From: Escherichia phage vB_Eco_F31
DNA: 64,000 nt
Sequence record: OP870147.1
Strand: one strand, 5' to 3'
Part shown: positions 332-60,922 of the stretch, one piece after another
How the letters are laid out: every line of letters begins with the position of its first letter
Numbering within the stretch: position 1 is the stretch's first letter
Made by a program: the position numbers and the translations under genes
The notes under the pieces: generated by a model
What the model was told of the DNA's origin: nothing
Database searches by the model: none
The model's input: the letters and a program-made list of their open reading frames with translations, nothing else

Positions 332-337
332 TGAAAA

Positions 338-351
338 GGGCCTTCGGGCCC
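338..351 (+). terminator. GC hairpin GGGCC-UUCG-GGCCC after wac (terminator or RNA-stability stem-loop; no U-tract)
   Basis: Perfect 5-bp stem with UUCG tetraloop 7 nt after wac stop. Confidence 0.35.
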
Positions 352-363
352 TAAAGGATTTAT

Positions 364-2939: not shown

Positions 2940-5256
<2,317 letters not shown>

Positions 5257-11688: not shown

Positions 11689-13257
11689 ATGACTACTATC
11701 AAAACTAAAGCTCAGCTCGTAGACAAATGGAAAGAACTGCTGGAAGGTGAAGGCCTGCCGGAAATCGCTAATAGCAAGCAGGCTATTATCGCTAAAATCT
11801 TCGAAAACCAGGAAAAAGATTTCGAAGTATCCCCTGAATATAAAGACGAGAAAATCGCTCAGGCATTTGGTTCTTTCTTGACCGAAGCTGAAATTGGTGG
11901 TGACCATGGTTATAATGCTCAGAACATCGCAGCAGGTCAAACCTCTGGTGCAGTAACCCAAATTGGGCCGGCAGTTATGGGTATGGTTCGTCGTGCTATT
12001 CCTAATCTGATCGCTTTTGATATTTGTGGTGTTCAGCCTATGAACAGCCCTACCGGTCAGGTATTTGCTCTCCGTGCAGTATATGGTAAAGACCCTATCG
12101 CTGCTGGCGCTAAAGAAGCTTTCCATCCGATGTATGCCCCAGACGCGATGTTCTCTGGTCAGGGTGCTGCTAAGAAATTCCCAGCTCTGGCTGCTGACAC
12201 TACTACTGTTGTAGGTGATATCTATACTCACTTCTTCCAAGAAACTGGTACTGTATATCTGCAAGCTTCTGCTGTCGTAACACTTGATTCTAGTGCAACT
12301 GATGCAGCTAAATTAGATGCAGAAGTTAAGAAACAAATGGAAGCTGGTGCACTGGTAGAAATCGCTGAAGGTATGGCTACTTCTATCGCTGAACTCCAGG
12401 AAGGTTTCAACGGTTCTACCGATAACCCATGGAATGAAATGGGCTTCCGTATCGATAAACAAGTTATCGAAGCTAAATCTCGCCAGCTGAAAGCTGCTTA
12501 CTCTATCGAATTAGCACAAGACCTCCGTGCAGTACACGGTATGGATGCTGATGCTGAACTGAGCGGTATTCTGGCTACAGAAATTATGCTAGAAATCAAC
12601 CGTGAAGTTGTTGATTGGATTAACTACTCAGCACAGGTTGGTAAATCCGGTATGACCCTGACTCCGGGTTCTAAAGCTGGTGTATTTGACTTCCAGGACC
12701 CGATTGATATCCGTGGTGCTCGTTGGGCCGGTGAAAGCTTTAAATCTCTGTTGTTCCAGATTGATAAAGAAGCAGTTGAAATTGCTCGTCAAACCGGTCG
12801 TGGTGAAGGTAACTTCATTATCGCTTCCCGTAACGTAGTTAACGTACTGGCTTCAGTTGATACTGGTATTTCTTACGCTGCACAGGGTCTGGCTTCTGGT
12901 TTTAATACCGACACTACTAAGTCTGTATTTGCCGGTGTACTTGGTGGTAAATACCGCGTATACATCGACCAGTATGCTAAACAGGATTACTTCACCGTTG
13001 GTTACAAAGGCGCTAACGAAATGGATGCAGGTATTTACTATGCTCCTTACGTTGCACTTACCCCGCTGCGTGGTTCCGATCCTAAGAACTTCCAGCCGGT
13101 AATGGGCTTTAAAACTCGTTACGGTATCGGTGTTAACCCGTTTGCTGAAAGTTCCCTGCAGGCTCCAGGTGCTCGCATCCAGTCCGGTATGCCATCTATC
13201 CTGAACAGCCTTGGTAAGAACGCTTACTTCCGCCGTGTATATGTAAAAGGCATCTAA
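11689..13257 (+). CDS. 23: major capsid protein gp23
   Basis: 522 aa; sequence very close to T4 gp23 as recalled (MTTIKTK...EGEGLPEIANSKQAIIAKIFENQEKDF ... GKNAYFRRVYVKGI). Confidence 0.97.
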   Translation: MTTIKTKAQLVDKWKELLEGEGLPEIANSKQAIIAKIFENQEKDFEVSPEYKDEKIAQAFGSFLTEAEIGGDHGYNAQNIAAGQTSGAVTQIGPAVMGMVRRAIPNLIAFDICGVQPMNSPTGQVFALRAVYGKDPIAAGAKEAFHPMYAPDAMFSGQGAAKKFPALAADTTTVVGDIYTHFFQETGTVYLQASAVVTLDSSATDAAKLDAEVKKQMEAGALVEIAEGMATSIAELQEGFNGSTDNPWNEMGFRIDKQVIEAKSRQLKAAYSIELAQDLRAVHGMDADAELSGILATEIMLEINREVVDWINYSAQVGKSGMTLTPGSKAGVFDFQDPIDIRGARWAGESFKSLLFQIDKEAVEIARQTGRGEGNFIIASRNVVNVLASVDTGISYAAQGLASGFNTDTTKSVFAGVLGGKYRVYIDQYAKQDYFTVGYKGANEMDAGIYYAPYVALTPLRGSDPKNFQPVMGFKTRYGIGVNPFAESSLQAPGARIQSGMPSILNSLGKNAYFRRVYVKGI

Positions 13258-13281
13258 TCTTAATTGATTAAATCTTATTTT

Positions 13282-13305
13282 GGGAGACTTCGGTCTCCCA
13301 TTTTT
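13282..13305 (+). terminator. rho-independent terminator GGGAGAC-UUCG-GUCUCCC + U-tract after gene 23
   Basis: 7-bp GC-rich stem, UUCG loop, followed by ATTTTT. Confidence 0.6.
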
Positions 13306-13309
13306 GGTT

Positions 13310-13579
13310 TTATTTCTGTGCAATTTCGATGTAAGTTTTCAAAATATTTTGCCAATTAGGCATACCTTCTTGGACATATGCTGGAGAACCGTCTTTGTTT
13401 TTGAATGATGCAAGTTTATCAGTGGCCCAATAACCTTTAGCTCGAGCTTCAGAATCAACTTTCATCCATACTTTGTTGAAGGCATTACCATTAACTTTTG
13501 CACCATATTTTTCTACTAACTTAACTGCTTCAGCTTCCAGAACTTTTAAAGTATCTCTTAAGAAACGTGCTTTAGTCAT
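13310..13579 (-). CDS. hypothetical protein (89 aa) at the locus where T4 carries segD
   Basis: ATG at 13579 preceded by AGGAG and an early-promoter-like motif; no GIY-YIG/HNH motifs seen. Confidence 0.6.
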   Translation of the reverse strand: MTKARFLRDTLKVLEAEAVKLVEKYGAKVNGNAFNKVWMKVDSEARAKGYWATDKLASFKNKDGSPAYVQEGMPNWQNILKTYIEIAQK

Positions 13580-14964: not shown

Positions 14965-14973
14965 AAAAAAAAA

Positions 14974-14989
14974 GGGACCGTAAGGTCCC
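14974..14989. terminator. bidirectional terminator GGGACC-GUAA-GGUCCC flanked by A11 and T5
   Basis: Hairpin between convergent genes 24 (+) and rnlB (-); poly-A upstream and poly-T downstream. Confidence 0.6.
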
Positions 14990-14996
14990 TTTTTCG

Positions 14997-18802: not shown

Positions 18803-20317
18803 ATGACTGACATTAAAGTACATTTTTATGATTTTAGTCACGTGCGCATTGAATGCGACGAAAGTACGTTTTACGAACTTCGTGACTTTTTTAGCTTTGA
18901 AGCTGACGGGTATAAATTTAACCCAAAATATCGCTATGGGCAATGGGATGGTAGAATTCGACTTTTAGATTACAATCGTTTGTTACCATATGGACTTGTA
19001 GGACAAATAAAAAAGTTCTGTAACAATATGAGTTATTCTGTATGGATTGACCCTAAAATCTTTGAGACTGAAGACCTTACCAGGGAAGATTTTGACGCAT
19101 GGCTTTCTAAACAAGAAATTTATTCTGGCAACGCCAAAATTGAACCACATTGGTATCAAAAAGATGCAGTATATGAAGGACTAGTTAATCGTCGTCGAAT
19201 TTTAAACCTTCCGACATCAGCAGGTAAATCACTAATCCAAGCACTTTTAGCTCGGTATTATCTAGAGAACTATGAAGGTAAAATTCTCATTATCGTCCCT
19301 ACAACAGCATTGACAACCCAGATGGCTAATGATTTTGTTGATTATCGCTTGTTTAGTCATTCGATGATTAAGAAAATTGGCGGTGGTGCTGATAAAGCGG
19401 ACAAATCTAAAAACGACGCTCCAATTATTGTTGGCACATGGCAAACGGTAGTTAAGCAGCCTAAAGAATGGTTCTCTCAGTTCGGTATGATGATGAACGA
19501 TGAATGCCACTTAGCAACAGGCAAAAGTATTTCTTCAATCATCTCAGGATTAAATAATTGTATGTTTAAATTCGGTTTATCCGGCTCATTAAGAGACGGA
19601 AAAGCCAATGTAATGCAGTACGTAGGAATGTTCGGTGAAATCTTCCGTCCTGTTAGCACGTCTAAATTAATGGAAGATGGACAAGTAACTGAGCTTAAGA
19701 TTAATAGTATTTTCCTTCGTTATCCGGACGAATTCGCCACCAAATTAAAAGGTAAAACATACCAAGAAGAAGTTAAAATTATTACCGGACTAAAACGTCG
19801 TACAAAGTGGATTGCTCAACTTTCGGTCAAATTGGCTAAGAAAGACGAGAACGCCTTTGTAATGTTTAAACATGTTACACACGGTAAAGAAATATTTGAA
19901 GCTATTAAAGAGCTTGGATACGAAAAAGTTTATTACGTATCAGGTGAAGTTGATACTGAAACACGTAACGCGCTTAAAGTCATGGCAGAAAATGGTAAAG
20001 GCATTATTATTGTCGCATCATATGGAGTATTCTCTACTGGTATTTCAGTCAAGAATCTTCATCATGTTATTTTTGCCCATGGTGTTAAATCAAAAATTAT
20101 CGTACTTCAAACCGTAGGTCGCGTGCTTCGTAAGCATGGTTCTAAAGCTGTTGCTACAGTTTGGGATCTCATCGACGATGCAGGTGTAAAACCTAAATCA
20201 TTAAATACTAAAAAGAAGTATACTCATCTTAATTACTTGTTAAAACACGGTATTGATCGTATCCAACGTTACGCTGATGAGAAATTTAACTATGTAATGA
20301 AAACAATTAATTTATAA
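18803..20317 (+). CDS. uvsW: UvsW helicase (SF2, RNA-DNA/branch helicase)
   Basis: 504 aa; helicase motifs (Walker A-like PTSAGKS, DEAD-box-like MMMNDECH); size and position as T4 UvsW. Confidence 0.9.
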   Translation: MTDIKVHFYDFSHVRIECDESTFYELRDFFSFEADGYKFNPKYRYGQWDGRIRLLDYNRLLPYGLVGQIKKFCNNMSYSVWIDPKIFETEDLTREDFDAWLSKQEIYSGNAKIEPHWYQKDAVYEGLVNRRRILNLPTSAGKSLIQALLARYYLENYEGKILIIVPTTALTTQMANDFVDYRLFSHSMIKKIGGGADKADKSKNDAPIIVGTWQTVVKQPKEWFSQFGMMMNDECHLATGKSISSIISGLNNCMFKFGLSGSLRDGKANVMQYVGMFGEIFRPVSTSKLMEDGQVTELKINSIFLRYPDEFATKLKGKTYQEEVKIITGLKRRTKWIAQLSVKLAKKDENAFVMFKHVTHGKEIFEAIKELGYEKVYYVSGEVDTETRNALKVMAENGKGIIIVASYGVFSTGISVKNLHHVIFAHGVKSKIIVLQTVGRVLRKHGSKAVATVWDLIDDAGVKPKSLNTKKKYTHLNYLLKHGIDRIQRYADEKFNYVMKTINL

Positions 20318-20342
20318 GGGCTTCGGCCCTTAGGAGATAAAA

Positions 20343-28872: not shown

Positions 28873-28878
28873 GAAAAA

Positions 28879-28895
28879 GGGAGACGTTGTCTCCC
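28879..28895. terminator. bidirectional terminator GGGAGAC-guu-GUCUCCC between gene 54 and the 97-aa ORF
   Basis: 7-bp stem flanked by AAAAA upstream and TTT downstream. Confidence 0.55.
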
Positions 28896-28904
28896 TTTAG
28901 GGGT

Positions 28905-35703: not shown

Positions 35704-35715
35704 AATTTCCTCAGT

Positions 35716-35731
35716 GGGAGCCGAAGCTCCC
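35716..35731 (-). terminator. intercistronic hairpin GGGAGC-UUCG-GCUCCC (minus strand), no U-tract
   Basis: 6-bp stem with UUCG loop between stop of 121-aa gene and RBS of 204-aa gene. Confidence 0.35.
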
Positions 35732-35738
35732 AATTAAT

Positions 35739-36589: not shown

Positions 36590-36618
36590 ATAGTAACACA
36601 TCCTACAGGAGAGTAAAC
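36590..36618 (-). promoter_or_regulatory. early-promoter-like motif GTTTAC-N17-TACTAT
   Basis: Minus strand GTTTAC ... TACTATAGACTTGTACCA upstream of the 122-aa gene. Confidence 0.45.
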
Positions 36619-36654
36619 ATCTTTTTAAACTTTTTCTGCCCTAAACGCACAAAA

Positions 36655-36672
36655 GGGAGACCGAAGTCTCCC
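36655..36672 (-). terminator. rho-independent terminator GGGAGAC-UUCG-GUCUCCC + UUUU (minus strand)
   Basis: Same 18-nt hairpin as at 13282, 51876 and 60200; follows stop of the 59-aa ORF. Confidence 0.55.
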
Positions 36673-36677
36673 TAAAA

Positions 36678-36857
36678 TTATGCAACAACCTTTCCAAAAC
36701 GAGAAGCATCATCTCGAAGAACTGCACGTGCTCTGCGCATGATCTTCTCAACTGTTTGATTAATACGAGAGTTCGACCCACGCTTGTATCCAGCGCGTTT
36801 AGAGGTACCATCAACTTTCTTTTCAACTGCTTTCTTTGCTTTAGCTTGTTTTGCCAT
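36678..36857 (-). CDS. small highly basic hypothetical protein (59 aa), below the track's cutoff
   Basis: Hand-translated MAKQAKAKKAVEKKVDGTSKRAGYKRGSNSRINQTVEKIMRRARAVLRDDASRFGKVVA; followed by terminator hairpin 36655-36672. Confidence 0.5.
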   Translation of the reverse strand: MAKQAKAKKAVEKKVDGTSKRAGYKRGSNSRINQTVEKIMRRARAVLRDDASRFGKVVA

Positions 36858-45336: not shown

Positions 45337-45350
45337 GGGACCGAAGTCCC
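45337..45350 (-). terminator. hairpin GGGAC-UUCG-GUCCC (minus strand) between nrdB stop and denA start
   Basis: 5-bp stem with UUCG loop 9 nt upstream of denA ATG; no U-tract. Confidence 0.35.
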
Positions 45351-51815: not shown

Positions 51816-51844
51816 ATAGTATCATGTTTAAAGGAAAAGTAAAC
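51816..51844 (-). promoter_or_regulatory. early-promoter-like motif GTTTAC-N17-TACTAT
   Basis: Minus strand GTTTAC ... TACTATAGACCTATCAACAACATGAGGAAATC then ATG of the 130-aa gene. Confidence 0.45.
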
Positions 51845-51875
51845 AACTTTTTCGGCAATTTACAGATACTCAAAA

Positions 51876-51893
51876 GGGAGACCGAAGTCTCCC
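51876..51893 (-). terminator. rho-independent terminator GGGAGAC-UUCG-GUCUCCC + U-tract (minus strand) after gene 32
   Basis: Identical 18-nt hairpin 7 nt after gene 32 stop, followed by UUUUG. Confidence 0.55.
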
Positions 51894-51899
51894 AATTTA

Positions 51900-52802
51900 T
51901 TATAGACCAGCTAACAGGTCATCGAGGTCGCCATCATCAGAGGATGAGGTAGAGCTCATGAAGTCATCTTCAGTTTTTGCAGAACTAAAGGCTTCCATGT
52001 CTTTATCAAAATCGTCAAGGTCAGAAGCAACTTTATCTGCAACAGAAGCTGCTGCGGCTGCTGCACCACCAAGAGCGGCAGTACCAAGAACCTTAGCGAA
52101 AGATTCATTTAATTTTTCAAAGGATTTGAACTGGTCTTTAGCCGTCAAAGTAGTAAGGTCTACCATCTGGTCATATAGTTCTTTCTGGAACGCTTCGTCA
52201 TTAATACGAGGAATTTCAGATTGACCCAAGAATTTAGATTCGTCATAGTTGCTAAAACCAGAAACCTGCTTAGCTTTCAGAACGAAGTTGGCACCTTCAA
52301 ACGGACAAGTAACATCAACTGGAGTTTCACCCATTTCGGTATCAACAGCAATCATTGCATTGATTTTGTCCCAAATCTTTTTACCGAAACGATATTTAAA
52401 TACTTTACCTTCGTTATCTGGAGCTTGAGGGTCTTTAACAACCAGAATATTAGCCCAATAAGAAGTTTTACGTTTCAGTTGAGAATATTCATTTTTGTTG
52501 GTATTGTACAGGTCATTTTTACTAATGTACTGACATACAGGACAAGAGTCGTAATCGCCGTGTGTAGAAGAGCAATTTTCAATATACCATTTACCATTTT
52601 TCTTGAAACCGTGGTTAACAAGAATTGCAAATGGTAGTGCATCATCAGTTTTTGCTGGCAAGAAACGAATTACCGCTTGACCATTACCTGATGCATCTAG
52701 CTTCAGCTTCCATTCGCCTTTATCTTCTGAAGAGAAACCTTTGTTACCGTTCAGTTTAGCCATTTGAGCAGCGAGGTCAGCAGTAGATTTACGTTTAAAC
52801 AT
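51900..52802 (-). CDS. 32: single-stranded DNA-binding protein gp32
   Basis: 300 aa; zinc-binding H..C..C..C region ([11 protein letters not shown]), acidic C-terminus; AT-rich leader. Confidence 0.95.
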
Positions 52803-59066: not shown

Positions 59067-60194
59067 ATGGAAAAATTTATGGCTAAGTTTAGACAAGGAT
59101 ACGTCCAAACGCCATTTTTATCGGAAAGCAATTCAGTACGATTTAAATTAAGCATAGCGGGCTCTTGTCCGCTATCAACATCTCCTACTTATATTAAGTT
59201 CCAAGATAATCCACTTGGTTCCCAGGTTTTTTCTGTTGGATTAAACGTTCGTGTAATAAATCCTACAACAGGTGCAGTAGTTGAATCTAAGTCATATAAT
59301 TTCTCTACTGAAAACGACGCCACGTCAAGTGCATTTGTTACTTTCATGGACACATATGCTTCAAATTTTATATTTGCTCTTGTTACTAACGCTAAAACAA
59401 ACTTTCCACCTGAAGTTCTTGCATGGTTTACTAAAGCTGGGAGTTCTGCTATTCCATTAGCTCAACAAGTTTTAAATATAGTGGACATTTCTTATTCGGC
59501 ATTTTATATTTCTGGTAAGAATGCTATAGCACTAGAACATATTAAGTATAGTAATAAGAAAACTTCAACCGACTATAGTACACCACTTGATGTTGTGTAC
59601 GACACGATCGATGATATTGGCGCTACTGGCTTCCCTAGACGTACGTATGAATCGTCAGACACATTTTTATCTGCTGTTGGAGGTACTAATAATGAAATTA
59701 AAAGGATGCCTACAACATCCATTATTACACCTCTCGCTGGGTATAAATTGAAGCCTGGAGATTTCCTTTATATGAAATTCCAACTAATGGCTGATGTCGA
59801 TTTGTTAGCACAAGGGACGACACGACTTTCTATTCGTTTCTTTAAATCTCCTTCTACTTCACCTATTTCATTTAAGGATATAAACTTTGATGGGGGCGCA
59901 GGTGAATGGAAGATATATGAAGACTACATAGAAATTCCTGCTGGTGCTGACGGGTTCACGATTTATTGTTATCGTACAGCTCCAGTCGGGCAAGGTGGAT
60001 TAAGAAACGTTATATTCACTGAAGTATCATGTAATGGAAGCGTTTCAAAACCTGCCGAGTTTGGTATAAATGGTATTCGTGTAAATTATGTTTCAGAATC
60101 TTTAAGTGCCCCAGACATAATGACATTACCTACTCAATCTTCAACCGATACTGGTAAGGTATTTGGTCAAGAATTTAAAGAAGCGTCAGAATAA
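59067..60194 (+). CDS. 35: long tail fibre hinge protein gp35
   Basis: 375 aa; synteny 34-35-36-37. Confidence 0.85.
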   Translation: MEKFMAKFRQGYVQTPFLSESNSVRFKLSIAGSCPLSTSPTYIKFQDNPLGSQVFSVGLNVRVINPTTGAVVESKSYNFSTENDATSSAFVTFMDTYASNFIFALVTNAKTNFPPEVLAWFTKAGSSAIPLAQQVLNIVDISYSAFYISGKNAIALEHIKYSNKKTSTDYSTPLDVVYDTIDDIGATGFPRRTYESSDTFLSAVGGTNNEIKRMPTTSIITPLAGYKLKPGDFLYMKFQLMADVDLLAQGTTRLSIRFFKSPSTSPISFKDINFDGGAGEWKIYEDYIEIPAGADGFTIYCYRTAPVGQGGLRNVIFTEVSCNGSVSKPAEFGINGIRVNYVSESLSAPDIMTLPTQSSTDTGKVFGQEFKEASE

Positions 60195-60199
60195 ATTTA

Positions 60200-60222
60200 G
60201 GGAGACTTCGGTCTCCCATTTT
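60200..60222 (+). terminator. rho-independent terminator GGGAGAC-UUCG-GUCUCCC + U-tract after gene 35
   Basis: Identical 18-nt hairpin followed by ATTTTT, then late promoter of gene 36. Confidence 0.6.
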
Positions 60223-60224
60223 TG

Positions 60225-60232
60225 TATAAATA
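60225..60232 (+). promoter_or_regulatory. T4-type late promoter (TATAAATA) for gene 36
   Basis: Exact TATAAATA 25 nt upstream of gene 36 ATG, right after terminator hairpin. Confidence 0.5.
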
Positions 60233-60256: not shown

Positions 60257-60922
60257 ATGGCCGATTTAAAAGCTGGTAGTACAACTGGCGGCGCTGTTAT
60301 ATGGCATCAAGGTAATTTCCCTTTAATGCCAGCAGGTGATGACGTCCTGTATAAAACGTTTAAACTCTATTCAGAATATAATAAACCACAAGCTGCTGAT
60401 AATGATTTCGTTTCTAAAGCTAATGGTGGTACTTACGCTTCAAAGGTAACATTTAACAGTGGCGTGCAAATACCATATGCTATAAACAATACAAACCAAA
60501 GCGGTATTTTTCCTGGTAACGGTGATGCAGCTACTTTTGTTACAGCAAATATTGATATTGTTTCATGGTACGGTATTGGTTTTAAATCATCACAAGGAAC
60601 AGCTGGTAGAACTGTAGTAATCAATACACGTAATGGTGATATTAATACAAAAGGCGTTGTATCTGCTTCAGGACAAGTAAGAAGCGATATGACTGCTCCG
60701 GTTGCAGCAAATGATCTCACAAGAAAAGATTATGTTGATGGAAGAATAAATATTGTTACGGATAACGCAAATTCCCGTGTATTGCGTAAAGGCGATACCA
60801 TGACTGGTACTTTAACAGCACCAAACTTTTTCTCACAGAATCCGGCGTCTGAGGCTAATCATGTTCCTCGTTTCGACCAGATTGTAATTAAAGATTCTGT
60901 TCAAGATTTCGGCTATTATTAA
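60257..60922 (+). CDS. 36: long tail fibre distal connector gp36
   Basis: 221 aa, same as T4 gp36; late promoter upstream. Confidence 0.85.

Follow-up and report, generated by a model that had tools for sequence, protein, structure and literature searches.

Reuse of one probable C(UUCG)G terminator hairpin at four gene ends in a T4-type coliphage of the genus Mosigvirus

CUUCGG hairpins are abundant in the intergenic regions of T4 (Tuerk 1988, as cited in PMC8948821). Also described from T4-like phages are the PeSLs (promoter-early stem-loop cassettes), which consist of a stem-loop terminator, an AT-rich stretch, a sigma-70-like early promoter, a Shine–Dalgarno (SD) sequence and a start codon, with a stem consensus that is lineage-specific and with cassettes that have been proposed to recombine with one another (PMC2839356, PMC4122927). 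The promoter consensus of PST/T4 PeSLs is TTTACW-N17-TAYWAT (Comeau et al. 2014, PMC4122927), and in lacZ fusions PeSL stem-loops were shown to act as terminators (Arbiol et al. 2010, PMC2839356). Further hallmarks of PeSLs are an association with indels or with the exchange of ORFans in hyperplastic regions, and recombination between copies, which gives mini-circles.

The hairpin repeated in the 64,000-nt stretch of phage DNA analysed here (the window) shares several features with the T4 C(UUCG)G hairpins: a C-G-closed UUCG loop, a short, perfect, G/C-rich stem, an intergenic location and sense orientation, in a class of which many members carry a U-tract and some adjoin a ribosome-binding site (RBS). 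This particular stem is absent from T4, and the stem letters alone differ. The PeSL layout is found at two copies, after genes 30.9 and 32, where the candidate promoters fit the PST/T4 consensus as consensus matches only. In contrast to PeSLs, no early promoter accompanies the copies behind the late genes 23 and 35, the second of which adjoins a late promoter instead, and the neighbours of all four copies are genes conserved from T4 to RB69, not ORFans of hyperplastic regions. More distant parallels are REP/BIME elements and the inverted pairs of uptake sequences in Neisseria and Haemophilus, palindromes dispersed between bacterial genes that also serve in termination or mRNA stabilisation; their copies number in the hundreds, are longer or imperfect and are spread by a dedicated system (the RAYT transposase or DNA uptake). 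The window resembles them in reusing a specific short palindromic word at the 3' ends of genes, but has four copies per genome, identity confined to the terminator and no associated machinery.

By Megablast, the window belongs to the genus Mosigvirus, the RB69-like T4-type coliphages, with 98-99.7% identity to APCEc01, PhAPEC2, G53 and others. A search for the 18-mer GGGAGACTTCGGTCTCCC returned four exact matches, at 13282-13299 and 60200-60217 on the plus strand and at 36655-36672 and 51876-51893 on the minus strand, exactly as the initial annotation had it. The chance expectation is 0, with no match in any of 100 dinucleotide-preserving shuffles of the window, and the window holds no additional copy with up to three mismatches. 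The three close variants that had also been reported are all present at their positions (Table 1). When perfect hairpins with four loop nucleotides and a stem of 5 bp or more were counted, UUCG was by far the commonest tetraloop of the window (13 of 102, with ~0.8 expected under equiprobable loops), and 10 of these 13 are C(UUCG)G hairpins located between ORFs. With its C-G-closed UUCG on a perfect stem, the 18-mer falls within this over-represented, mostly intergenic class of T4 type. The bare 18-mer (GGGAGAC-UUCG-GUCUCCC) has a predicted folding energy of -12.0 kcal/mol, and in folds of ~59-nt RNAs the hairpin was dominant at each copy, often with an A-U pair that lengthens the stem to 8 bp. 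No Rfam family matched anywhere in the window.

Table 1. Hairpins, terminators and neighbouring promoter motifs in the window; promoter entries are consensus matches.
Feature	Position	Strand	Sequence and remarks
Probable terminator after gene 23 (major capsid protein; stop 13255-13257)	13281..13308	+	U-GGGAGAC-UUCG-GUCUCCC-A, then UUUUUGG
Bidirectional terminator, convergent genes 54 (+) / alt.-3 (-)	28874..28900	both	GGGAGAC/GTCTCCC stem, 3-nt loop
Triloop variant	28879-28895		GGGAGAC-GTT-GTCTCCC; stem of the 18-mer, 3-nt loop
C(UUCG)G hairpin	35715..35732	-	UGGGAGC-UUCG-GCUCCCA; without U-tract; 3 nt 5' of GAGG-N6-AUG; not a copy of the 18-mer
Variant	35716-35731	-	GGGAGC-UUCG-GCUCCC
T4-type early promoter-like site	36590..36617	-	TTTACT-N16-TACTAT, consensus match only; 37 nt 3' of the 30.9 terminator
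Probable terminator after gene 30.9 homologue (59-aa ORF 36678..36857, minus)	36646..36673	-	A-GGGAGAC-UUCG-GUCUCCC-U, then UUUGUG; marginal U-tract
Short C(UUCG)G hairpin (variant)	45337..45350	-	GGGAC-UUCG-GUCCC; between nrdB and denA homologues; no clear U-tract
T4-type early promoter-like site	51816..51843	-	TTTACT-N16-TACTAT, consensus match only; 33 nt 3' of the gene 32 terminator
Probable terminator after gene 32 (ssDNA-binding protein; stop 51900-51902)	51868..51893	-	GGGAGAC-UUCG-GUCUCCC, then UUUUGAGU
Probable terminator after gene 35 (tail-fibre connector; stop 60192-60194)	60200..60224	+	GGGAGAC-UUCG-GUCUCCC, then AUUUUUG
Gene 36 late promoter consensus	60225..60232	+	TATAAATA; adjoins the U-tract of the gene 35 terminator, at +8

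Judged from the ORFs and from annotated relatives, the genes 5' of the four copies are 23, a 30.9 homologue, 32 and 35. Three of these placements (after 23, after 32 and after 35) had been claimed correctly before, and for the fourth copy, at 36655, the upstream gene is a 59-aa homologue of T4 gene 30.9. All four lie 4-24 nt past a TAA stop, with UUCG on the sense strand of the upstream gene, and each has a T run directly 3' of the stem in the sense orientation only, giving tails of AUUUUUG after 23 and 35 and of UUUUG after 30.9 and 32. The form of an intrinsic terminator, namely a stem of 7-8 bp with five G-C pairs and a tract of 4-5 U, is present at every one of them. A simple consensus terminator scan with a threshold of 5 T in 8 flagged three of the four; the 30.9 copy was marginal and was not flagged, because its tail reads UUUGUG when the A-U pair is counted as stem.

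The gene 23 terminator sits between convergent genes, the facing ORF (13310..13579) being on the minus strand. This ORF is intact in the window (89 aa) and homologous to RB69ORF188c; the RB69 annotation splits its equivalent into two small ORFs, 188c and 189c, so the region may be disrupted there or mis-annotated. After 30.9, the early promoter-like motif at +37 is followed by the next start codon at +97 (ORF from 36547), and after 32 the motif at +33 is followed by a start at +78 (ORF from 51786); a generic sigma-70 scan scored both motifs below its cut-off. The gene 35 site carries a 25-nt string identical to that of the gene 23 site. Beyond it, the gene 36 ATG lies at 60257, 25 nt past TATAAATA, and the terminator/late-promoter arrangement at the 35/36 junction is kept in most T4-like contigs. 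The terminator between genes 54 and alt.-3 has a good U-tract on the minus strand only (UUUUUCUU). Between genes 24 and rnlB, a long bidirectional terminator (14968-14995; A6-GGGACC-GUAA/UUAC-GGUCCC-U6) has U-tracts on both strands and is annotated on both strands in PhAPEC2.

We conclude, with a probability of about 90%, that each of the four 18-mers forms the hairpin of an ordinary Rho-independent terminator, of the C(UUCG)G class known from T4, and that they end the transcripts of genes 23, 30.9, 32 and 35. The initial annotation had read the repeat as a terminator hairpin, a reading now supported by position, sense orientation, U-tracts and the existing annotation of PhAPEC2. From what is established about intrinsic termination, E. 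coli RNA polymerase would transcribe the inverted repeat, the nascent RNA would fold into a G/C-rich stem of 7-8 bp with the unusually stable and fast-folding cUUCGg cap, and the transcript would be freed through the weak rU:dA hybrid at the tract of 4-5 U; the 3'-terminal hairpin left on the mRNA would also protect it from 3'-to-5' exonucleases. After 30.9 and after 32, the hairpin would act as the stem-loop half of a PeSL-type cassette, insulating neighbouring early transcription units; after 35, it would end transcription right beside the gene 36 late promoter; and after 23, it would close the capsid-gene transcript at a convergent junction. We infer termination and mRNA stabilisation in vivo at the four sites, and likewise the cause of the exact stem reuse, from the position, orientation, structure, U-tracts, downstream promoter motifs and comparative pattern observed here; a literature search for Term-seq or 3'-end mapping in T4-type phages found none. 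Since the U-tracts are short (4-5 U) and the 30.9 copy is below threshold, some copies may act as attenuators that let polymerase leak through, or may serve mainly for stability.

Comparison with close relatives places the elements among those already described. PhAPEC2 (KF562341.1) has 'putative terminator (ARNold)' features at all four orthologous sites; these are the same elements at orthologous positions, and its annotation is silent on their reuse. The identical 18-mer is present at three of the four sites, while the site after gene 35 reads AGGAGAC-UUCG-GUCUCCU; in both PhAPEC2 and RB69 this site has AAGGAGAC...GUCUCCUU, the outer G-C pair being changed to A-U. The observation of four identical hairpins is therefore correct, but the elements are already known: they are classic T4 CUUCGG terminators, annotated in a sister genome. 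A whole-genome motif count, proposed at the outset as a check and run on the nearest complete relative, APCEc01 (NC_029091.1; 168,771 bp), gave exactly four copies at the same four sites, out of 25 UUCG hairpins in total, with a triloop variant and one AAAGGAGAC-UUCG-GUCUCCUUU after the gene 41 homologue as extras. RB69 carries the 18-mer after 23, 30.9 and 32 and the GGAGAC core after 35, which indicates that the reuse predates the Mosigvirus radiation.

Two other hairpins differ in loop orientation between these close relatives. The sense-strand loop of the 35716-35731 hairpin is UUCG in the window versus CGAA in APCEc01 (NC_029091.1 54418-54435), and the loop of the 54/alt.-3 terminator is GTT in the window and APCEc01 versus AAC in RB69 (NC_004928.1 ~124931), with identical flanks in both cases. 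Each loop inversion needs three to four substitutions or one inversion or template-switch event at a perfect palindrome. An IMG/VR scan for both loop orientations of the 35716 hairpin returned no matches.

We gathered the regions 3' of genes 23, 35, 32 and 30.9 from ~50 T4-like contigs, revealing a strong hairpin at these sites in every lineage examined, usually with a UUCG loop and with stems that included GGGAGAC, GGGAACC, GGGACC, GGAGCC, GGGAGCC and GGGACUC(C). At the gene 23 site, seven of the eight stem pairs were changed on both sides among 20 distinct sequences, a covariation that is partly circular because the hairpins had been chosen by a hairpin finder. As orthologous sites in other genera have different stems, it is the structure that is conserved and not the letters, which argues against a sequence-specific factor. 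After gene 35, contigs of the T4 group have GGGAGCC/GGUUCCC, in which a G·U wobble is paired only in the sense RNA. In evolutionary terms this stem stands midway from GGGAGCC to GGGAACC, and it is direct evidence for selection on the RNA.

T4 itself (NC_000866.4) has 20 UUCG hairpins, none of them with a GGGAGAC stem. At non-homologous sites it repeats AGGGGC-UUCG-GCCCCU three times (29952, 69291, 110165), AGGACUCC-UUCG-GGAGUCCU twice (15303, 130340) and AAAGGCC-UUCG-GGCCUUU twice (5381, 125541). T4 thus also reuses stems of its own, so that stem reuse is habitual throughout the family. In a set of 142 C(UUCG)G hairpins from 31 cluster representatives, the commonest cores were GGAGAC (20) and GGAGCC (19), and the dominance of these two indicates that T4-like phages use a small family vocabulary of stems. 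The exact repetition in the window would then reflect a small, lineage-specific vocabulary of terminator stems in which GGGAGAC is the dominant word of this lineage. One stem in 4 of the 10 C(UUCG)G hairpins of the window has a binomial probability of ~1e-5 if stems are uniform and of 0.002-0.04 given the T4-like vocabulary, which upholds the initial view that the copies are more than independent GC hairpins. Given the family vocabulary, however, the sharing of GGAGAC by four of ten hairpins deserves notice without being exceptional.

Elsewhere, the 18-mer was matched in unrelated viral contigs (at least 120) and in bacterial contigs (again at least 120), with unrelated flanks. Among the matches listed, at least five of the next eight bases are T in 107 of 122 viral cases and in 103 of 126 bacterial cases, compared with 31 of 126 on the opposite strand for the bacterial set, an association indicating that the 18-mer functions as a terminator hairpin in any sequence in which it appears. 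It is present twice within 8 kb in several genomes of Gallionellaceae, Sideroxydans and Nitrosomonadales, each time with a CUGUUUUUU-type tail, which suggests that these bacteria reuse this terminator word as well. We considered and rejected a universal preference for GGGAGAC: in an unbiased IMG/VR sample of the pattern GGG-NNN-C(UUCG)G-NNN-CCC-TTT, AGA accounted for 1 of 76 perfect stems, close to the uniform 1/64, and GGGAGAC is not among the most stable stems. The 33-nt string of 60200-60232 (hairpin, AUUUUUG and TATAAATA) also lies 5' of gene 13 in another T4-like genus (IMG/VR contigs 2974546015, at 3492, and 3300045988_048364, at 13574) and would amount to a PeSL-like layout with a late promoter. 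As a significant identity, this cassette at the wac/13 junction was rejected: each of its parts is a consensus element, so the match could be convergence, and many junction pairs were implicitly compared.

Sharing of the same 6-nt core between different sites amounted to 8.4% within genomes versus 4.2% between genomes (p = 0.005-0.016; all UUCG hairpins), and at the four anchored sites 11 of 50 within-genome pairs shared a core, with 4.3 expected (p = 0.002). Both excesses fell to p = 0.17 once the lineages rich in GGAGAC (the window, CHI14 and EcS1) were taken out. The signal of general within-genome homogenisation is thus real, at roughly twofold, but not significant in their absence. GGGAGAC occupies all four sites in the window, in Serratia phage CHI14 and in Escherichia phage EcS1. 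In a tree of gp23 and gp32, the sister of the window is the T4 group and that of CHI14/EcS1 is contig 2974736276, and both sisters use other stems; the 30.9 site is GGGACUC(C) in most lineages, T4 included, and its change to GGGAGAC, which takes four substitutions, happened twice. The four-site state therefore looks independently derived, and its source was probably a GGGAGAC stem that was ancestral at gene 23.

Such a history could be explained by physical copying between non-homologous terminators, through ectopic gene conversion or recombination of PeSL-like cassettes, helped by template switching at palindromes, leading to concerted evolution. This explanation concerns the origin of the identity and not the function of the hairpins, and we regard it as possible though somewhat doubtful. 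Copying is favoured by the twofold within-genome sharing of the core and by the rarity of GGGAGAC elsewhere (1/76), which shows that the stem is not universally favoured. The occupation of all four sites in the window and in CHI14/EcS1, with other stems in their sisters, implies parallel derivation, and RB69, which has GGGAGAC at three of the sites and its GGAGAC core at the remaining one, fits the same picture. At the 30.9 site the change of four substitutions was made twice. The two loop inversions with identical flanks point to DNA-level template-switch events at palindromes, and experiments in RB49/phi1 have demonstrated PeSL recombination, with crossovers that map within the stem-loop (PMC2839356).

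The identity, however, covers 18-25 nt in the window and no more than 34 nt in EcS1, without ever passing the stem extension, the U-rich tail and the promoter; being confined to functional parts, it could be explained by selection alone. The excess of shared cores is not significant without the window, CHI14 and EcS1, and each 169-kb genome has just four copies. The near-identical terminators after 23 and 35 in T4, a candidate for a clean case of concerted evolution, were weakened as such by the closest relatives, which have GGGACC after 23 and GGGAGCC/GGUUCCC after 35, so that the near-identity is partly coincidental. Parallel selection fits the reuse pattern equally well. A fuller version of the copying explanation holds that T4-like terminators evolve in concert, with a resident terminator (probably the ancestral one after 23) repeatedly copied onto non-homologous sites, core late genes included, by short-tract conversion or template switching, independently in Mosigvirus and in CHI14/EcS1, the loop inversions being footprints of the process; we consider it tentative and rather unlikely as a whole. 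The idea of a dispersed module spread by recombination, raised in the initial annotation, survives in part: it matches the published PeSL concept, whose architecture is present at two of the four sites, but the identity ends with the terminator (18-25 nt).

Alternatively, the exact copies might be mainly RNA stability or processing hairpins, protecting 3' ends after read-through or endonucleolytic cleavage, and not termination sites. The U-tracts are short, the 30.9 copy having just UUUUGUG, and the T4 literature ties CUUCGG hairpins to mRNA stability (PMC8948821). Four other CUUCGG hairpins of the window have no U-tract and adjoin an RBS: those at 337-352 (+), 20315-20332 (+), 35715-35732 (-) and 45337-45350 (-) lie 0-3 nt 5' of the SD sequence or start codon of the gp13 homologue, uvsW.1, a 30.x ORF and denA. 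The first two had not been listed before. Because all four lack a U-tract and abut an RBS, the CUUCGG class has uses other than termination, and the hairpins of this subclass are probably intercistronic stability or processing barriers, or RBS-presenting structures, rather than terminators. The earlier statement that several copies lack a U-tract and sit just upstream of an RBS thus holds for these other, shorter members of the class, but fails for the 18-mer, which has a T run 3' of the stem in four of four copies and in the sense orientation only. A T run likewise follows ~85% of the viral and bacterial 18-mer matches listed, and three of the four copies separate units that have a promoter of their own directly downstream. 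One hairpin can serve both in termination and in 3' protection; a role mainly in stability or processing seems to us unlikely for the exact copies.

It is very unlikely that the exact sequence is bound by a specific phage or host factor, such as RegB, another RNase or a DNA-binding or recombination protein, with the copies serving as processing or binding sites. The stem does contain GGAG, the core of RegB sites, the 18-mer is kept at the gene 23 site across several genera beside an unalignable spacer, and the PeSL authors speculated on a recombination protein that binds stem-loops (PMC2839356). RegB, however, requires an unpaired GGA and is kept off by secondary structure, whereas here GGAG is paired within a stem of -12 kcal/mol; late and most middle transcripts are RegB-resistant; and the strong-site consensus GGAGRAYARAA is unmatched, the 3' context being ACUUCGG. 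The 18-mer thus does not answer to the description of a RegB site, which is an unpaired GGAG in an A-rich context, usually at the RBS of an early gene. T4 and other genera use GGGAACC, GGGACC, GGAGCC and GGGACUC at the orthologous sites, and in unrelated phages and bacteria that have no T4 factors the 18-mer is a U-tract-associated hairpin. We found no evidence for the proposed recognition by a specific factor.

Two further candidates were dismissed, namely a mobile element or extended repeat of REP/MITE type, given an identity of 18-25 nt that ends with the U-tract and four copies per 168.8-kb genome, and the GGTCTC (Eco31I/BsaI) site inside the hairpin, which other lineages do not have and which in T4-type DNA would contain modified cytosines.

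With the four hairpins read as ordinary intrinsic terminators, the finding carries little weight as such, since the terminators are known and the idea of a dispersed module has already been published in the form of PeSLs. Three aspects are mildly new: that one stem word is used at both early (PeSL-type) and late terminators, that the same word stands at the same four sites in the Mosigvirus lineage, CHI14 and EcS1, and that loops are inverted between close relatives. In practical terms, phages and bacteria alike contain GGGAGAC-UUCG-GUCUCCC with a U-tract, a natural terminator of compact form. What value remains concerns evolution, namely a small, lineage-specific stem vocabulary and distinct lineages that use one word at the same four sites. 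If this pattern arose by copying rather than by selection, PeSL-type cassette exchange would extend to core late genes, and these phages would offer a simple system for the concerted evolution of regulatory elements.
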